Source: Bacteroidales bacterium
GTDB lineage: Bacteria > Bacteroidota > Bacteroidia > Bacteroidales > B39-G9
Direction of reading: 5' to 3'
Length of the DNA stretch: 64,000 nucleotides
Assembly (NCBI GenBank): GCA_023133485.1
Contig: JAGLWK010000071.1
Location: forward strand, 2,181-66,180
Shown here: piece after piece, positions 22,273 through 54,434 of the stretch
Numbering within the stretch: position 1 is the first letter of the stretch
Layout of the letters: every line of letters starts with the position of its first letter
Translations under genes and position numbers: made by a program
The notes under the pieces: model-generated
The model's input: the letters and a program-made list of their open reading frames with translations, nothing else
The model's database searches: none
What the model was told of the DNA's origin: nothing

Positions 22273-22338
22273 AGTAAAGCTATTTTAGGACGATATAAGT
22301 TTTGTTCAATTTTGTAATAATCTTATGAATTAATCGGG
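22273..22338 (+). repeat. degenerate remnant of the MITE seen at 38731-38912 and 45249-45410
   Basis: Contains AGTAAAGCT, TAAGTTTTG and CTTATGAATTAATCGGG in the same order as in the full element. The last 15 nt are identical to the element terminus. Confidence 0.5.
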
Positions 22339-22370: not shown

Positions 22371-22601
22371 ATGACTACTTTACAAATTAATGTACAAGAC
22401 GATTTAATAAATCTTTTTGGCACGCAAGCAATAAAGCAATTCATTGAAGAAGAACTTGCTTACAAAAAATTTAGATTATTAGAAATAGAATTAAACAAAG
22501 TTCTTTCGCAAGCTAAAGATGTAAATTGGGAACAAGAATTTGAAAATGCAAGGCAAAAAGCATTTGAAGAATATCAAAAAATAAGTAAAAGAAAGTTATG
22601 A
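22371..22601 (+). CDS. putative antitoxin of the PIN module
   Basis: 76 aa, and its stop overlaps the PIN start by 4 nt (ATGA). The call rests on this gene arrangement only. Confidence 0.5.
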   Translation: MTTLQINVQDDLINLFGTQAIKQFIEEELAYKKFRLLEIELNKVLSQAKDVNWEQEFENARQKAFEEYQKISKRKL

Positions 22602-23053
22602 AGAGTTATGTAATTGATGTTAACGTTTTATTCAGCGGTGTTTTAAGCCAAAAAGAAATTTATAGAATTATGTTTTCTAATAATACCTTTTACACACCCG
22701 ACTTTGCCTTGATTGAATTAAATAAGTACAGGGAAGTAATTTTAAAGAAAACAAAATTAGAAGTTAAAAAATTGCATGACTTTACTCTTTACCTTTTTTC
22801 TAAAATTATTGTTGTACCTGATTACATTATTTCAGAAAAGGCATATAAAAAGGCTGAAAAACTTTGTAAAAATATTGACATTAAAGATGTTGTTTATGTT
22901 GCTCTTAATGAAGAATTAGGATTAGAATTACTAACAAGAGACAAAGTACTCAGAAACGGATTAATAAACCAAGGATATACAAAAATCCTGTTGTTTAATG
23001 ATTTCATTAATGAAATATTAAAAAACGAAAGAGAAAATAAAACAATGCTCTAA
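22598..23053 (+). CDS. PIN-domain putative toxin
   Basis: N-terminal YVIDVNVL with an acidic residue and a C-terminal LLTRDKVL motif, in a protein of about 150 aa. Confidence 0.6.
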   Translation: MKSYVIDVNVLFSGVLSQKEIYRIMFSNNTFYTPDFALIELNKYREVILKKTKLEVKKLHDFTLYLFSKIIVVPDYIISEKAYKKAEKLCKNIDIKDVVYVALNEELGLELLTRDKVLRNGLINQGYTKILLFNDFINEILKNERENKTML

Positions 23054-34679: not shown

Positions 34680-34753
34680 TGACCCAGAGAGGACTCGAAC
34701 CCCCAACCCTCAGAGCCGAAATCTGATATTCTATCCAGTTGAACTACTGGGCC
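34680..34753 (-). tRNA. tRNA-Arg (anticodon UCG)
   Basis: I folded the cloverleaf by hand. The acceptor stem is GGCCCAG/CTGGGTC with one G-U pair, and the D stem is GTTC/GAAT. The anticodon stem is TCAGA/TCTGA with loop TTTCGGC, and the T arm is GGGGG-TTCGAGT-CCTCT. CCA is not encoded. Confidence 0.85.
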
Positions 34754-34767: not shown

Positions 34768-34808
34768 AAGTAAAAAGTTAACAATTGACAATTAACAGTA
34801 GGCAAAAT

Positions 34809-34965
34809 CAGGGCAAACCCATGAAAAAACAAGTATAATAATCTCAGTACATTAAAAACAAATAATAATTCCATAGGAATTTTCTATTTGTAGCCCTGAA
34901 TGGAAGTTCAGGGATGTAAATTATGCAATTCATAATAAGTCCCGTTAGGGATGACCTGTAATTTA
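34809..34965. repeat. left arm of the inverted repeat flanking the RAYT gene (REP-like hairpins)
   Basis: Contains CAGGGCAAACCCATGAAA (34809-34826) and the hairpins CCCTGAA-tggaag-TTCAGGG (34894-34913) and TCCC-gtta-GGGA (34940-34951). All three are mirrored on the right side. Confidence 0.65.
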
Positions 34966-35427
34966 TTAATCATAAAATTCAAAAAGATATTTTTCGTTAT
35001 ATTCAATCCCAAATTTATTAAGGAATTCAATATATTCATCTCTAAATGTTCTCTTTTTATGATGTTGTTGTTGATTTATTATATGTTTTATAACATTATC
35101 TATTTGTGAATGTGAATATGTAAATGCTCCATACCCTGACTGCCAACAAAATTTTGATTTATACCAATTTTTTTCATTTATAAATTTTGAAGAAACTGAT
35201 TTTATTTCCTGAATTGTCTTTGAGATAGAATAAGAAGGATGTTGCCCTAAAAATATATGAACATGATCGGGCATATTATTTATTGCAAGCATTTTACAAT
35301 TACGATTTTGTACAATACCTGTAATGTATTTCTGTAATTCATCATTATTTTCTTGCTTTAGAAAATTAATTCTTCCTTTTACTGTAAAAACGTAATGAAC
35401 ATAAGCCTGTATGAATGAATTTGCCAT
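34966..35427 (-). CDS. IS200-like Y1 (HUH) transposase, REP-associated tyrosine transposase (RAYT)-like
   Basis: 153 aa with YVHYVFTVKGR, the HUH motif PDHVHIFL and the tyrosine motif QSGYGAFTYS. Confidence 0.75.
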   Translation of the reverse strand: MANSFIQAYVHYVFTVKGRINFLKQENNDELQKYITGIVQNRNCKMLAINNMPDHVHIFLGQHPSYSISKTIQEIKSVSSKFINEKNWYKSKFCWQSGYGAFTYSHSQIDNVIKHIINQQQHHKKRTFRDEYIEFLNKFGIEYNEKYLFEFYD

Positions 35428-35622
35428 AATTTATTTTTTAGATCGTCCTTCACAGGACTTTAATTTTATTCGTTATTTATTTACACTGCACTTCCGTACA
35501 GTGCTATAAATAGAATGTCCTTAACAGGACAAATTTAATTTGATGACAAATATAAAATAGTTAAGGTAAGTACAGATATAAAATTTAATTTAAAAAAAAA
35601 ATTATTTCATGCGTTTGCCCTG
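35428..35622. repeat. right arm of the inverted repeat flanking the RAYT gene
   Basis: Hairpins GTCCT-tcac-AGGAC (35445-35458), CACTG-cacttccgta-CAGTG (35484-35503) and TGTCCT-taac-AGGACA (35516-35531). The outer TTTCATGCGTTTGCCCTG (35605-35622) is the revcomp homologue of 34809-34826. Confidence 0.65.
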
Positions 35623-36563: not shown

Positions 36564-38213
36564 TTAAAAATCGTAATAAAAATTATTTAATGATGTTTTA
36601 ATTCCAAAAGACACAAAACTAGCTTTATTCACAGTTATTTCAGATTTTTCTTCTCTATAAACAAACTCAACAAACACATTCATATAAGTTTTTGGATTAA
36701 TTAGATAGTTGAATCGGAATTTAGCGAATATTAATTCTGTATGTAATCCTTGTCCTGTTTTATTATTATATGAAGGAAAACCTCTTTGTGCCTCATAGTC
36801 GGAACGAAAAATATCTTTTCCCCAGTGAAAATTTGCTGTATCAGCACCATAAACAGCATAATTCAATTTAAATTCAACAAACCAATCTTTAAATCTATAA
36901 TTTAAAATTGTAACCGATTCTTTAAAATTTGCACCAAAGGGATGGGCTAATGCTTGATTATAATGACTGTAATTTTGCAATGGTGTTTTATGTGCATATA
37001 CATAAGGTCTTACATTATTATATTCTGTTTGAAAATACAAATTTGGAATTGAGAATAAATCATAAAACTTTATCCCTAACTGATAACCATATTTATTTAA
37101 GATATAACCACCGTTACCTGTACTATCTTCCTTTGATCTTCCAAAATCAATGTCATCAATAATAAGTTGGCTGTAATATGTAATATTATTGTTGATTTTA
37201 ATTTTAAGATTTGAACCTATTAACGCATTATCGGGAGAACCCAAAGAAAATTCAACAGGACGGTAAAAAATCACAGGGTTTATATAGTTTATGTCAAACC
37301 CTCTGCTTCCTGTAGAATCTGCTCTTTGCCATATAATTGATTCAAACATACCAAAACTTATATATTTGTTAATATTAATGCTTAAATAATGAGTAGTGCT
37401 TTGTTTTCTTTGAAATCCTCCGGGGTAACTATGATTTGAATTCAAGTCCAAATATGTTGTATATAAATTAGTATATTGTAGTTTCCATATATTGGTAGTT
37501 ATTTTAAAGAAAGGATAATTAAAAGAATTATCAGATAATAATAATGACCTGTATCCATCACCAATAAAATTTTTACCATGACCAAATTGGAAATTAAAAT
37601 ATTTTTTGGGCGAATAAGAAATTAATCCTGTAGCATAAGCATAATCATAGCCATTCGTTTTAAAGTTTTTTACAAAACCTTGTCCGGGTACAATTCTGTT
37701 TTTCGATACAAAATCATTTAAATAGCTATTAAAAAAAGATTGATTTTCGCAAAATAATGATTCAAAATAAAGATTATTACCCAAAATACCCTTAATTATA
37801 ATTCCACGTGTGTTATTATAAATTTTAGATATATTTTTACTTTTTTCACTGTTTTCAAGTTCATAACTAAAATTAAAAAGTGGGTCAATCGTTAAATAAA
37901 AATCAGTAGTATCAACAATTATAAAGTTTTCGTATCTAAGCTTTCTTTTGAACCATGAATAATTTTTGTAATCAGCATTTCTGTTGAGCATTAAAACAGA
38001 ATCAAAGCCCGAAGAATCTACAGAAGATATATATGGCTTGAAAGAAGAATGGAAATTTGCTCCTAAATCATTAATAGATTTTTCAATGGTTTGGTTGAGA
38101 TTTCTGTTTAATGGAAGAATTTGTTGAGAAAATAAAGATTTGCAAAACAAAATAAGAAACAGAAAGATGATGGTATTTAAAGAATATTTTGTCATATTAA
38201 TATTGAATTTCAA
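36564..38213 (-). CDS. outer-membrane beta-barrel protein, Wzi/RemB-like (capsule or gliding-polysaccharide assembly)
   Basis: Signal peptide and 549 aa. The FGHGKNFIGDGYRSLLLSD motif and the C-terminal beta-barrel pattern recall Bacteroidota proteins annotated as Wzi-family or RemB. The family call is from memory only. Confidence 0.55.
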   Translation of the reverse strand: MKFNINMTKYSLNTIIFLFLILFCKSLFSQQILPLNRNLNQTIEKSINDLGANFHSSFKPYISSVDSSGFDSVLMLNRNADYKNYSWFKRKLRYENFIIVDTTDFYLTIDPLFNFSYELENSEKSKNISKIYNNTRGIIIKGILGNNLYFESLFCENQSFFNSYLNDFVSKNRIVPGQGFVKNFKTNGYDYAYATGLISYSPKKYFNFQFGHGKNFIGDGYRSLLLSDNSFNYPFFKITTNIWKLQYTNLYTTYLDLNSNHSYPGGFQRKQSTTHYLSININKYISFGMFESIIWQRADSTGSRGFDINYINPVIFYRPVEFSLGSPDNALIGSNLKIKINNNITYYSQLIIDDIDFGRSKEDSTGNGGYILNKYGYQLGIKFYDLFSIPNLYFQTEYNNVRPYVYAHKTPLQNYSHYNQALAHPFGANFKESVTILNYRFKDWFVEFKLNYAVYGADTANFHWGKDIFRSDYEAQRGFPSYNNKTGQGLHTELIFAKFRFNYLINPKTYMNVFVEFVYREEKSEITVNKASFVSFGIKTSLNNFYYDF

Positions 38214-38376: not shown

Positions 38377-38946
38377 TTATAATATTTTTTGGATTTCTTC
38401 TAATACTTTAGAAAGATTTGTTTCTTTAGATTCTATTATTGTTTTTTGTGTGTTTTCTATTATATGCTTATGATGAGGGAATGTAGCTATTTCGGGATGG
38501 TGGGGTGCATTATCATATCTAAAGATTAAATTTTTATCTTTATTCATTAGGTTATATCTATATTTTAATAAAGAGATGTCATCATTTAATTTAGCAAGCT
38601 CTAAAAATTCTAAAATATAGAAATTTACTATTATTATTTTACCTTGTACTATACCAATTTTAAGGGATTTTACTTCGTATTTAATCTCATGTGTGGCAAT
38701 AATAGGCGATTTTGATACTAATTTTTCTATCCCGATTAATTCATAAACTTAAAAGATAGAATCCTGAATTAATCTGACAGCCTGTTCCGATTTCTCGGAA
38801 ACTTAGTAAAGCTAATATTTTGCTACGCTTCACTTCCAAAATTTAAGCTTTACTAAGTCGGGGTTAACCTGCATTATTTTAATGCTTTACGAAAACGTAT
38901 GAATAATGCAGGCTATAATCCTGAAGTATTCTTTTATATCCTCCAT
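38377..38946 (-). pseudogene. TumE/DUF6516-like toxin gene interrupted by a MITE
   Basis: The 3' part (38377-38730) encodes ...LIFRYDNAPHHPEIATFPHHKH..., with no start codon. The 5' part (ATG at 38946, MEDIKEYFRII) overlaps the upstream gene's stop by 13 nt. Removing 38731-38912 plus one CTAT joins the two parts in frame. Confidence 0.7.
38731..38912 (-). mobile_element. MITE copy A (182 bp, non-coding)
   Basis: Imperfect terminal inverted repeats, a 4-bp duplication CTAT (38727-30 and 38913-16), and near-identity to 45249-45410. Confidence 0.7.
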
Positions 38947-39227
38947 GAATCCAAAATTTTTTTAATCTCCTTATATTCAGTCGTTATCTCACTCAATGCT
39001 TCAAATTCAGATGCCCATAACATAATATCCTGAGAATCTCCCATTTGACCATCACTAAATTTTTGATAGAATTTTTTGGAACTTATATTATGTTTGTTTT
39101 CAAAAATTTTTAATTTTTCTATAGTATTATTTATATTTATTTTCAGTATTTCTAATTCACGCTTTAAAGCATTGTAAATAATTGGAGCCGTAGATGTCGG
39201 CATTTTGAAAGTTGTTGTAGCCGTCAT
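38934..39227 (-). CDS. putative antitoxin partner of the TumE-like gene
   Basis: 97 aa and helical, with its stop overlapping the toxin ATG. The call rests on the gene arrangement only. Confidence 0.45.
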   Translation of the reverse strand: MTATTTFKMPTSTAPIIYNALKRELEILKININNTIEKLKIFENKHNISSKKFYQKFSDGQMGDSQDIMLWASEFEALSEITTEYKEIKKILDSWRI

Positions 39228-39261: not shown

Positions 39262-39909
39262 TTATGTTTTTAAGAATAATTTTATTGATATTATTTGCAA
39301 GTTTTTTACAAGACCTTGTCCGGGTACAATTCTGTTTTTCGATACAAATTCATTCAAATAGGTATTAAAAAAAGATTGATTTTCGCAAAATAATGATTCA
39401 AAATAAAGATTATTACCCAAAACACCCTTAATTATAATTCCACGTGTATTATTATAAATTTGGGATATATATTTGCTTTTTTCACTATTTTCGAGTTCAT
39501 AACCAAAATTAAAAAGAGGGTCTATTGTTAAATAAAAATCAGTAGTATCAATAATTATAAAGTTTTCGTATCTAAGTTTTCTTTTGAACCATGAATAATT
39601 TTTGTAATTAGCATTTCTGTTAATCATTAAAACAGAATCAAAATCTAGAGAAGCAACTGTAGAAATGTATGGCTTGAAAGAAGAATGGAAATTTGCTCCT
39701 AAATCATTAATAGATTTTTCAATGGTTTGGTTAAGATCACGATTGAGCGGCATAATTTCCTGCGCTGTCAAATCTATTAATGATAAAAATAAAATATTAC
39801 AGAAAAGACATAATAACGTCTTGGTATAAATATCTTTTATAAAATAATTAATTGAAGAATCTTTGATGTTAAAAATCTTTTGATTACGATAAATAAATCC
39901 TATCACCAT
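39262..39909 (-). pseudogene. truncated second copy of the Wzi/RemB-like gene (N-terminal third only)
   Basis: 39300-39753 aligns with 37664-38115 at roughly 90% nucleotide identity by eye. The protein matches residues about 33-185 of the full copy, then diverges and stops. Its signal peptide is different. Confidence 0.75.
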
Positions 39910-43709: not shown

Positions 43710-45128
43710 TTAAAATCCTCCCTTGCCTAAAATTACTACAGGAATAGTTTTAATTATCAATTTAAAATCGAGCCATGGCGACATGTTGTGAATATAATAA
43801 TAATCCATAATAACCATTTCGTCAAAGCTAACAGTACTGCGACCAGATACTTGCCAAACTCCTGTTAAGCCTGGTTTTATCATAAAACGGGATTTATGCC
43901 ATTCTTTATATTCTTTATACTCATATGGTAAACAAGGCCTTGGTCCTACCATGCTCATATTTCCCTTAATTACATTAAATAATTGGGGCAATTCATCAAT
44001 GCTTGTTTTTCGTATAAAATACCCTATTGGTGTGATTCTTGAATCTTTGGTAATTTTAGTTGTACCGTTTTCGATTTTTCCATTAATAAATTCTTTTGTA
44101 AATGTTTTGTGTGTTTTATTATCTTTATTAATATACATTGAACGAAACTTGTAAAATGCAAAAAACTTTCCATTTTTACCAATTCTTTGTTGTTTGAAAA
44201 ATACAGGTCCTTTTGAAGTAATTTTTATAAAAATACTTATTATAATAAATAATGGTAACAGAATAACAATTCCTACAGATGCAAGAACCAAATCAGTTAT
44301 TTTTTTAATAAAATTAAGATAAAAACTTTTTGAATTATAGTTTAATTCTATTAATGTTAAATCATCAACAGATTCAAGAGTTTGTGTCTGATATAATATT
44401 TCATAAAGTCCCGAAACAAGGAATATTCTTACATCAAGTATTTTTAGAGAATTAATTATTTCCTGTAATCGTTTATGAGAGATTGTGTTAATTGCAATAA
44501 TTACAGTATCAACCTGCCTTAATTTCCTTAGATTTATAAGAGTGTTATAATCACCAAATATATCATTTTTTTCGTTTTTCTCTTTATTATCATCAATAAA
44601 CCCTATGAATTTCCATTGATTACTTTTTTCAACTTTTTCCCTAACTTGATTTCCTCTATTGCCTGCACCGTATATAATCAATTTTCTTTGTAGATAACCG
44701 ATTTTTTGAAACCATAGAAAAAAACTTTTAAATAATAATACCCTATAAACAAAGAATATAACAAATGAAATAATAAGAAAATAAATTATAAATAATCGAC
44801 TTTCATACCTGCTTCCTAATTTGAAAAAAAATGAAAAAAACACAACAATTAAAAGAATATCAATAAAAATGCTTTTGAATAATTTAACCAAATGTATCTT
44901 CCTGTTTGTAAAGGTTTGGTATTTATACATTTGATTTGTTTCAAAGCTGTAAACCGCTAAGAAACTGACAAAGGCAAAAATGATTATTTCTTTGATTATT
45001 ATTCCTTCGCTCAGATTAATAATGTCAATATCAGGTTTGAATCTAATGCGCATTGCCAGAGCAAAACAAAAATTCAAGATTGTATAATCAATTAAAGCAA
45101 GTATCCATTTGTAGCCAGCTAATTTCAT
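43710..45128 (-). CDS. polyprenyl-phosphate glycosyl-1-phosphate transferase (WbaP-like initiating enzyme)
   Basis: Has N-terminal TM helices and a central Rossmann-like region. The C-terminal 'bacterial sugar transferase' domain carries GPVFFKQQRIGKNG, FRSM, DELPQLFNV and MSMVGPRP. Confidence 0.85.
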   Translation of the reverse strand: MKLAGYKWILALIDYTILNFCFALAMRIRFKPDIDIINLSEGIIIKEIIIFAFVSFLAVYSFETNQMYKYQTFTNRKIHLVKLFKSIFIDILLIVVFFSFFFKLGSRYESRLFIIYFLIISFVIFFVYRVLLFKSFFLWFQKIGYLQRKLIIYGAGNRGNQVREKVEKSNQWKFIGFIDDNKEKNEKNDIFGDYNTLINLRKLRQVDTVIIAINTISHKRLQEIINSLKILDVRIFLVSGLYEILYQTQTLESVDDLTLIELNYNSKSFYLNFIKKITDLVLASVGIVILLPLFIIISIFIKITSKGPVFFKQQRIGKNGKFFAFYKFRSMYINKDNKTHKTFTKEFINGKIENGTTKITKDSRITPIGYFIRKTSIDELPQLFNVIKGNMSMVGPRPCLPYEYKEYKEWHKSRFMIKPGLTGVWQVSGRSTVSFDEMVIMDYYYIHNMSPWLDFKLIIKTIPVVILGKGGF

Positions 45129-45248
45129 TATTTTATTTTTCTTAAATTTACAACATTATCGACAAAAATGTATAAGTTTATTAATATGTTCACCATTAAA
45201 ATCAAGCTGTTAATCAAAAAACATATTAAATTTTATCTTTTCCCTTAA

Positions 45249-45410
45249 CCCGATTAATTCATAAACTTAAAAGATAGAATCCTGAATTAATCTGACGACT
45301 AAGAAAAGCTAATATTTTGCTGCGCTTCGCTTCCAAAACTTAAGCTTTACTAAGTCGGGGTTAACCTGAATTATATAAGCACTTTATCATAAACGTATGA
45401 ATAATTCAGG
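45249..45410 (-). mobile_element. MITE copy B (162 bp, non-coding)
   Basis: Has the same termini as copy A and a 4-bp duplication TTAA (45245-48 and 45411-14). It supplies the stop codon of the upstream deacetylase ORF. Confidence 0.7.
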
Positions 45411-46374
45411 TTAAAATATTTTTTTTATAATATTCCGCTATTTCTTTTGGTAAACATTTCCAAGTGTTTTTTATTTCAGATAAATAAGTAAGTAATTCTT
45501 CATAATATTTCAGATTATCTTTTTCCAATAAATAATCGGGATGAGTTAAAGCAAGAATAGTTCCATGATTTTTTATTAACCAATCTGTTTTATTTTTCCA
45601 AATATTGATATTTTTTAATTTCAAGGTATAAAACAATACATGGTCTTGCGGTAATGTATAAGGTAATTCAATAAATTTTCCTGATTTAAAAGGCCATATT
45701 GAGCCGGTACCACCCGGGAAAGGCTGAAACGGGTCATAATCGAAACATGATGCATCATACAGAATATCAAGTTGTTGTAACCATTTTAAGTTTCTGTGTA
45801 CTTGTGGTGACCTAAATCCAACAGCATTATATTTTTTTATTGCTTCATTAATATACGGAACACGGGCTTTAAAAATTTTCTCAGAAAAATAAAGTTTCCC
45901 GTCATGGTTATAACCGTGAATACCTATTTCGTGTCCGGCATTTTTTATTTCAGTTAAAATATCTTCATGAATTTTATACTTATATGGTACAATATTCCAT
46001 GAAGATTTAAATTGGTGTTTTTTTTCTAATTCTATAATTTTGGGAATAAAATCAAAACCTTTTTGTGTTTCAACATCATGAGTGAGAACAATAGCTGCTG
46101 AATAATTATCAGGATAAAGCGAATTAATAAATTTATTCCATTCTTCGGAGTTTTGTTTTAAAAAATCAACTAATTCTACCCAAATAAAATTTTTATTATA
46201 TTGAATGTTTTTAGTATAACGGTTTTGAAGATAATGTCTTACAAATAATGGCAATAAAGGACGTGCAAATGAATAATAAAAACGTTTGAATTTATTAAAT
46301 TCAAGATTAAAATCAGATTCTATTAAAAAATGTTTTATTTTATTTTCTGTAAAATATTTTAGCCTAACATCCAT
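45406..46374 (-). CDS. polysaccharide deacetylase (CE4-like; VimE-like role), with a C-terminus altered by the MITE
   Basis: Has the THDVET and IHGYNHDG motifs. The last codons ACC-TGA lie inside the MITE. Confidence 0.7.
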   Translation of the reverse strand: MDVRLKYFTENKIKHFLIESDFNLEFNKFKRFYYSFARPLLPLFVRHYLQNRYTKNIQYNKNFIWVELVDFLKQNSEEWNKFINSLYPDNYSAAIVLTHDVETQKGFDFIPKIIELEKKHQFKSSWNIVPYKYKIHEDILTEIKNAGHEIGIHGYNHDGKLYFSEKIFKARVPYINEAIKKYNAVGFRSPQVHRNLKWLQQLDILYDASCFDYDPFQPFPGGTGSIWPFKSGKFIELPYTLPQDHVLFYTLKLKNINIWKNKTDWLIKNHGTILALTHPDYLLEKDNLKYYEELLTYLSEIKNTWKCLPKEIAEYYKKNILT

Positions 46375-53246: not shown

Positions 53247-54434
53247 TTAAAATATTTTTTTTAATACCCTTTTAATATATAATCTATACATTAATGAAGG
53301 TTCATTCCAATATATATCAGAATAATATACTTTGTTAAAATAGGATTTAATCCATTTAATAAAAGAAAGTGAGCCTTCTTTTTTATATTCTAAGAATGTT
53401 GGGATATCTCGTGAAATTGAAACCCAATAAATATTTTTGTTTAGTGGTTTTACTGAGTTTTGTTCTTTCCCGATTAATTCATTGTAAGCAATTGTATAAA
53501 TATCAACTTCTAATTTTTTCCCGATTATATCCCATAATCCAATTCTTGTATTTACTTCAATTAGTTTATAGCTACCATCATTTTCGTCTTTTTTCATTTC
53601 AACACCAGCAGGTCCATAATATTCATTTTTTATTAATAGATTTAAACAGTAGTCTTTAATTGGTGAGGGGTCTGTGGTTTTCATAAAAGAAGCACTTCCA
53701 AAATGAATAGGAGTTATTCTTAGTTTTCTCCCACAAAAATATCCCAAACAAGTTCCATTTTTATCAATATAACAAACAAAATATAATAGATTTTCATCAG
53801 GACCCGGAACAACTTCCTGTATTATTATATTATTATCATATTTAGATATTATTTCCCATTGATTAATAAGTTCATTTTTTGTTTTAACATAAACTACTTT
53901 TTTACTATCAACAATATTTTCTAATGGTTTCTTTCTCCAGCTTTGAGCATATTTTGGTTTAATAACACAAGGAAAAGATAAATTATTCATTTCTTTCAAT
54001 AATTCATCTTTTGTTATTGGAGAAATCATTAATGGTACAGGAATATTAGTATTAACAGCTACTTTATACATTTCCTCTTTTGACATTAATTTTTCTGTGA
54101 TGAAATTTTTAGAAGTATTAAAATAAAAATGTTTTTTTAATATATTTTCATTTTTTAATATTGTTTTAATAAAACAATCTGATGTAATAAAAACTACTGC
54201 TTTTTTTTTCCATTTTTTTTGAATTGAAATTATAAAATCAATAAAAATAGTTTCATTTTCTTCAGGATCAGGACATTTTATTGTTTTCTTTCCTCTTAGC
54301 AAATAACCTATAGCGTCATCACGGAAATCAACACCTAGACATTCAATCTTTTTCTTTGTAAAATGCTTAATTATATCTATTCCCGGAATATAAAGTCCCA
54401 AAACCAAAACCGGATTGAAATTCTTTTTATTCAT
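53247..54434 (-). CDS. ATP-grasp carboxylate-amine ligase
   Basis: About 395 aa. Has FPCVIKPKY...W, IIQEVVPG and GPAGVEMKKD...KLIEVNTR motifs in ATP-grasp order. Confidence 0.65.
   Translation of the reverse strand: MNKKNFNPVLVLGLYIPGIDIIKHFTKKKIECLGVDFRDDAIGYLLRGKKTIKCPDPEENETIFIDFIISIQKKWKKKAVVFITSDCFIKTILKNENILKKHFYFNTSKNFITEKLMSKEEMYKVAVNTNIPVPLMISPITKDELLKEMNNLSFPCVIKPKYAQSWRKKPLENIVDSKKVVYVKTKNELINQWEIISKYDNNIIIQEVVPGPDENLLYFVCYIDKNGTCLGYFCGRKLRITPIHFGSASFMKTTDPSPIKDYCLNLLIKNEYYGPAGVEMKKDENDGSYKLIEVNTRIGLWDIIGKKLEVDIYTIAYNELIGKEQNSVKPLNKNIYWVSISRDIPTFLEYKKEGSLSFIKWIKSYFNKVYYSDIYWNEPSLMYRLYIKRVLKKIF

Follow-up and report, generated by a model that had tools for sequence, protein, structure and literature searches.

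The locus and its features

The window, i.e., the whole stretch of DNA analysed (64 kb), has a G+C content of 27%, and one of its proteins carries a sorting domain for type IX secretion. Together with the relative from a MAG labelled uncultured Bacteroidales (L115, below), these features indicate a host that belongs to the Bacteroidota and is known from metagenomes alone. A long array of genes for polysaccharide synthesis occupies the minus strand. Two short non-coding segments, here called copies A and B, lie within this array in the same orientation, the former splitting a toxin gene of the TumE family and the latter replacing the end of a polysaccharide-deacetylase-like gene. The features are as follows (coordinates, strand, description).

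38731–38912, plus (left end first): putative MITE copy A, 182 bp; nhmmer E = 5e-44
45249–45410, plus (orientation as A): putative MITE copy B, 162 bp; nhmmer E = 4e-50
38727–38730, no strand: CTAT, left direct repeat of copy A; removal of one CTAT with the element restores tumE
38913–38916, no strand: CTAT, right direct repeat of copy A
45245–45248, no strand: TTAA, left direct repeat of copy B
45411–45414, no strand: TTAA, right direct repeat of copy B
38934–39227, minus: tumA-like antitoxin gene, 97 aa, intact, directly upstream of the split toxin gene; NCBIfam TumA E = 1.4e-8, under the curated cut-off
38913–38946, minus: 5′ fragment of tumE, ATG at 38946–38944, 11 codons plus 1 nt, with a 13-nt overlap with the end of tumA; cut by copy A
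38377–38730, minus: 3′ fragment of tumE, frame still open; the last 56 codons alone are listed as an ORF
45406–46374, minus: polysaccharide-deacetylase-like gene, last 11 codons replaced by Thr-stop from the tip of copy B

Outside a segment present only in A, the two copies are identical at 146 of 161 aligned positions (90.7%), which bears out both the boundaries and the near-identity given in the initial annotation of this DNA. Its statement that the segments have no coding capacity also holds, no internal ORF of either copy being longer than 32 aa. Only two full copies are visible within the 64-kb window; an nhmmer search of the window with the family profile revealed no degenerate extra copy, and extension of the source contig on both sides revealed no further copy.

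Insertion of copy A into tumE

When positions 38731–38912 are deleted together with exactly one CTAT, a 127-aa ORF appears, the ATG of which overlaps the tumA stop codon. The restored protein covers positions 6–122 of the 122 in the NCBIfam TumE profile with 72.7 bits, versus 52.8 bits for the 56-aa fragment, which matches positions 76–122 only, and it is also matched by Pfam TumE. It has 415 homologues, the best of which are 125–129 aa long and cover 97–100%; alignment to the homologues is gap-free across the junction (MEDIKEYFRII followed by EKLV), around which Y7, F8, and L14 are invariant among them. Because excision restores a full-length, gap-free TumE, copy A is an insertion in codon 12 of tumE accompanied by a 4-bp duplication. 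The insertion event looks recent, judging from the reading frame, since the rest of tumE is still open.

TumE would consequently be knocked out and the antitoxin retained. TumE-TumA is an experimentally validated family of toxin-antitoxin systems that target translation (PMC10584680), and copy A would provide a clean natural case of a MITE disabling the toxin half of this recently described system while sparing the antitoxin. A natural empty site was sought by exact look-up of the restored TumE and deacetylase sequences in a protein collection; both were absent from it, and the proteins of the locus are singletons there.

The surroundings of tumE contain a separate direct repeat of 300 nt (37658–37957 and 39294–39593, 93% identical), and the tumA-tumE cassette with copy A lies between its two halves. 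A 215-aa ORF (39262–39909, minus) is a truncated paralogue of the N-terminal part of a 549-aa Wzi-like ORF (36564–38213, minus), to which it is 82% identical over 174 aa. It is as if the cassette had come with, or triggered, a partial gene duplication.

Insertion of copy B into a polysaccharide operon

Copy B is inserted 11 codons ahead of the natural stop codon of the deacetylase-like gene, in a polysaccharide operon. The encoded protein ends in KKNILT before the stop codon with the element, and in KKNILREKIKFNMFFD before the stop codon without it, so that the deacetylase-like protein is predicted to lose its C-terminal tail. The insertion also adds 166 bp of hairpin-rich sequence before the gene for a Bac_transf priming transferase (43710–45128). 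It may have polar or RNA-processing effects and, given its position in a capsule/exopolysaccharide operon, could alter expression of the priming glycosyltransferase.

Copies in other assemblies

A metagenome scan with a 20-mer of the left end, followed by BLAST and profile searches, gave seven further copies in other metagenomes and one MAG. They are listed below with their position on the respective contig, their length and the left/right flanking tetranucleotides.

L119: 3038–3199, 162 bp, TTAG/TTAG; 96.9% identical to copy B
L121: 2054–2213, 160 bp, TTAG/TTAG; ends as in the family, central hairpin different
L128: 157–318, 162 bp, TTAG/TTAG; complete
L122: 11660–11838, 179 bp, GTAG/TTAG; termini alone in common
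L124: 2880–3372, 493 bp, TTGG/TTAG; long variant
L123: contig end, partial, left flank TTAA; cut at the contig end
L115: contig end, partial, flanks not determinable; match from GTDB, MAG labelled uncultured Bacteroidales

The element is found in at least five other assemblies, on Bacteroidota-like contigs, and the neighbouring genes differ at each site: they include those for a TonB receptor with glutamine synthetase III, a PKD protein, a methyltransferase with FtsX, UbiA, a peroxiredoxin, and Wzz with a flippase. Copy B has greater identity to L119 (96.9%), a copy in a different assembly (34% G+C), than to copy A, with which it shares a genome (90.7%); a copy about 97% identical on a different metagenome contig of higher G+C content hints at recent spread between lineages. 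Most copies are 160–182 bp long and one is 493 bp, which is within the MITE range (about 50–1000 bp). The termini are conserved across the nine copies, and the interiors of L121 and L122 consist of unrelated hairpins. That the interior of L122 might be what is left of a transposase gene was considered and rejected, since it has just a 34-aa ORF and hairpins.

A scan of GTDB contigs used the pattern CCYGMWTTAWTTCATAMRYTT, one base longer than the consensus CCYGMWTWATTCATA, which could not match canonical copies; its 109 matches, mostly due to chance, included one real copy, L115, a variant with a 1-nt indel, and they do not speak for absence of the family, or of its parent, from GTDB. Correct patterns would be, for example, GATTAATTCATAAACTTAAAAG and CCTGMATTATTCATACG.

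L124 sits between Wzz-like and Wzx/flippase-like genes in a polysaccharide locus, on a contig of 28% G+C. Surface-polysaccharide loci hold three of the nine copies, a sample too small to call a preference.

Assemblies treat the element as a repeat, and several contigs terminate at it: an independent Logan contig ends 19 bp into copy B, and the contigs of L115 and L123 end inside their copies. Over 20,969 bp, the window and an ENA scaffold differ at a single position, 45339 (C versus T), which belongs to copy B; T is the base found at the matching position of other copies. This difference is probably due to reads of other copies cross-recruited during assembly. The copies break short-read assemblies and also yield truncated gene calls, such as the 56-aa “TumE” ORF and the shortened deacetylase-like gene.

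Some 620–730 bp past the right end of the window, the source contig has another hairpin-rich stretch, an intergenic region of 470 bp (L134, 8170–8420). It has AACCCCGACTTAG and a GACTTAG...CTTAGTC stem in common with the central module of the MITE; the MITE termini are absent from it, and a search against Rfam gave no match for it. An independent Logan contig (L135) starts exactly within this stretch, which suggests another repeat family.

Target duplications

The initial annotation had described a 4-bp direct repeat specific to each copy, CTAT around A and TTAA around B, and both are present exactly as reported; immediately beyond them the flanks of A and B are unrelated. It had also made its MITE call depend on the recurrence of such duplications in additional copies. 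All three further complete and undecayed copies have them, so that a perfect 4-bp duplication brackets five of five copies of this class (A, B, L119, L121, and L128), for which the probability by chance is ~4e-11 given the base composition. The older copies L122 and L124 keep the duplication at three of four positions. Of the six intact target sites, three are TTAG, two TTAA and one CTAT, and five fit YTAR.

Terminal hairpins and internal modules

The internal organization of copy A, together with an isolated terminus found elsewhere in the window, is as follows.

38731–38776, plus: left terminal hairpin, in which the outer CCCGATTAATTCA pairs with an inner inverted copy, TGAATTAATCTG, ~21 nt inward
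38779–38800, plus: A-only insertion of 21–22 nt, carrying a small hairpin, TTCCGAtttcTCGGAA
38801–38858, plus: central stem-loop, ACTTAGTAAAGCT ... AGCTTTACTAAGT, a module variable across the family
38869–38912, plus: right terminal hairpin, CCTGCATTATT ... AATAATGCAGG, 10 pairs, 100% paired
22323–22338, minus: isolated copy of the left terminus, CCCGATTAATTCATAA, 16 nt exact; the rest of the element is absent

The left terminus reads CC(C/T)GATTAATTCATAAAC... and the right terminus ...TATGAATAAT(T/G)CAGG, which is also written TATGAATAATNCAGG opposite the CC(Y)GATTAATTCATAAAC left end. They form imperfect terminal inverted repeats (TIRs) matching at 11 of 15 positions in A and 12 of 15 in B, in line with the approximately 12 of 15 first reported. 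The conserved left TIR corresponds to the first ~25 nt of the left terminal hairpin, which has 10 pairs, 100% paired in five copies, and the right TIR to the last ~15–20 nt of the right terminal hairpin, where CCTGNATTAT pairs with ATAATNCAGG. A terminal motif of ~10–13 nt is present four times per element, in alternating orientation. The 20-nt termini occur two to three times in the window versus an expected 0.03–0.04.

Between the terminal hairpins, the 13-bp central stem (38801–13/38846–58) pairs throughout in A, and two mismatches interrupt it in B, as originally noted. The extra hairpin of about 21 nt attributed to A alone, TTCCGATTTCTCGGAA, does sit in the A-only segment 38779–38800, which is missing from all six other copies compared (B, L119, L121, L128, L123, and L115).

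Two further sequences resemble the left terminus. The exact copy at 22323–22338 lies in a spacer that has an outer-membrane beta-barrel gene on one side and, on the other, a small ORF and then a PIN-domain (VapC-like) gene; it is upstream of the ORFs that begin at 22372 and of 22598–23053 (plus). It is possibly a solo-end remnant of the element, and may be a solo end beside another toxin-antitoxin pair. The sequence at 53469–53483 (plus), CCCGATTAATTCATT, matches the left terminus at 14 of 15 positions inside a 395-aa ORF (53247–54434, minus), with no other element sequence nearby, and is probably a chance match.

A terminal hairpin that differs between A and B at paired positions had been taken as covarying. 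The hairpins themselves are real and conserved: when the partners are slid against each other, pairing falls from 92% to 30–49%. As for covariation, the right hairpin contains a single compensated pair, which is C-G in A but A-T in B and three other copies, and the five full copies contain four doubly changed pairs versus 1.0 in shuffled alignments, four being reached in 3 of 500 shuffles. In five related sequences covariation of this extent is only suggestive, and compensated changes in palindromic DNA can also come from templated mutation, so that of the original claim the hairpin stands more firmly than the covariation. The central stem is replaced in L121 and L122 rather than covaried.

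Interpretation and alternative explanations

The two segments are best understood as copies of a non-autonomous DNA transposon (MITE), a reading to which we assign a probability of about 0.88. The excision that restores TumE, and the different flanks and neighbouring genes of the insertion sites, uphold the MITE call of the initial annotation. MITEs are described as widespread in prokaryotes and catalogued at scale in a preprint (bioRxiv 10.1101/2024.01.18.576219). Three other explanations have to be weighed against this reading.

One is that the segments represent a structured non-coding RNA gene or a cis-regulatory RNA, for example an intergenic element that acts in RNA processing or stability within the polysaccharide operon. 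Folding is predicted to be strong, both strands folding better than shuffled sequence (z = −4.3 to −7.6), the terminal helices are paired in all five copies with a few compensated changes, and A and B are both sense-oriented in the long minus-strand gene array. However, the sole match at gathering level to Rfam in the window is a tRNA, and only noise with E > 1 is found around both copies. Copy A interrupts a protein-coding gene and has a duplicated target, the genomic contexts of the copies are unrelated, and in L121 and L122 the centre has been swapped for unrelated sequence with the tips alone kept. Conservation of the tips combined with exchangeability of the interior fits recognition by a transposase and not an RNA gene. 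In addition, a scan for terminator-like sites found none, and sigma-70 promoter-like sites were no commoner than in shuffled sequence, in a scan unsuited to Bacteroidota promoters. An RNA gene is thus very unlikely, although a MITE can still be transcribed and have side effects at the RNA level.

Slightly less probable still is movement of hairpin elements by a single-strand HUH/Y1 transposase, as IS200/IS605-derived PATEs or REPIN-like elements, perhaps through an IS200-like gene 3.3 kb from copy A. The gene in question encodes a Y1_Tnp/IS200-family protein of 153 aa (34966–35427, minus) and has short hairpins on its flanks, and the MITE is hairpin-rich as well, with one hairpin per tip. PATEs and REPINs are likewise short, non-coding and hairpin-rich; the combination of TIRs and duplications is seen only here. 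IS200/IS605 and REPIN elements are not known to have terminal inverted repeats or target duplications. The characters of PATEs and REPINs are the lack of both and insertion adjacent to a fixed tetra- or pentanucleotide, whereas five of five complete young copies have TIRs and perfect 4-bp duplications, and the tumE frame is regained only when one duplicate is removed. Moreover, the comparisons gave no sequence similarity between the MITE and the flanks of the Y1 gene.

The Y1 transposase gene itself matches Pfam Y1_Tnp (E = 2e-25) and NCBIfam IS200 (78.7 bits), adjoins a tRNA gene (34680–34753, minus) and is unrelated to the MITE in sequence. The hairpins in its flanks (34800–34965 and 35428–35560) are GC-rich, e.g., GTCCTTCACAGGAC, CACTGCACTTCCGTACAGTG, and CCCTGAATGGAAGTTCAGGG.

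Finally, a local segmental duplication, recombination relic or assembly artefact, which the 6.5 kb or less between A and B, their common orientation and the 300-nt duplication bracketing the copy A region might bring to mind, is hardly credible, as unrelated flanks start directly at the 4-bp repeats (the shared flanks that the initial annotation considered fatal to its MITE call are not there), B is nearer to L119 than to A, the same element occurs in the other assemblies with neighbouring genes that rule out one shared locus, and two assemblies agree on the locus.

Transposase and proposed mechanism

Which enzyme would mobilize the MITE? The initial annotation held that a parent IS could not be assigned from the window, and indeed no autonomous IS with these termini was found in it. 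Paired inverted termini 0.1–4 kb apart were looked for in the window and in all the other loci retrieved, and the MITEs were the sole matches. Scans of IMG/VR with patterns for the left end, the right end and the interior returned no match, or else chance matches in coding sequence, and BLAST against plasmids and phages gave nothing, or chance matches of ~26 nt. The partner transposase is hypothetical because these searches (window, the other loci retrieved, IMG/VR, plasmids, and phages) found no autonomous IS with such termini.

An outline of the proposed process is as follows: a DDE-type transposase supplied in trans by a full-length IS elsewhere, having the same termini, would bind the ~25-nt left and ~15–20-nt right ends. 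The target would be cut with a 4-nt stagger and joined to the element ends, and gap repair would then produce the duplication. Inner inverted copies of the terminal 10–13 nt would form the tip hairpins; they may serve as extra transposase-binding sites or may be relics of the origin of the MITE. The interior would be freely exchangeable cargo.

It is also conceivable, if unlikely, that the mobilizing transposase belongs to an undescribed lineage, either a new IS group in which CC(Y)G tips go together with a YTAR target preference like that of IS5, or an enzyme dependent on the tip hairpins. If an enzyme of the latter kind were at work, recognition would be a function of the paired outer and inner terminal motifs, which would then not be relics. 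Under the undescribed-lineage reading, the exchangeable interior would turn these elements into natural carriers, scattering structured hairpin cassettes in polysaccharide and toxin-antitoxin loci of uncultured Bacteroidota. What is known of the workings of MITEs is left unchanged by the present family.

Comparison with known insertion sequences and MITEs

The TIRs of IS5-family elements begin with GG or GA; those given in PMC4596501 begin with GAGAC. The tips of the present element are CCCG and CCTG, i.e., CC(Y)G, and do not have such a start. The IS1380 family has ends starting with CC, duplications of 4–5 bp and members in Bacteroides; with its CC tips and 4-bp duplication, the present element may be compatible with it in these two respects.

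In the IS701 family, the duplication is exactly 4 bp and the end consensus is ---YACT-Y--YR, which according to its authors does not cover the whole family (PMC2266710). The length of the duplication is in common with the present element; the consensus does not fit CCCGATTAATTC or CCTGAATTATTC.

Duplication of 4 bp at 5′-YTAR-3′ is documented for IS5 itself (PMC5009759), and a target of the same type is used by the present family. Bacteroidota are known to contain IS5-type MITEs (PMC4596501). The IS5-derived MITEs, including MITEPgRS/MITE464 and BrickBuilt of Porphyromonas gingivalis and ATR of Neisseria, are also small, AT-rich and non-coding, and as here they have short TIRs, short duplications and interiors that vary between copies, and are intergenic or disrupt genes (PMC4596501). 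By sequence, and in a comparison made with the published P. gingivalis MITEs only, the termini appear unlike theirs: the TIRs are unrelated, GAGACC... or ACGT... in P. gingivalis versus CC(Y)GATTAATTCATA here (PMC4596501). Unlike the IS5-derived MITEs (PMC4596501), the present family has at each tip a hairpin in which the terminus pairs with its inverted copy further in.
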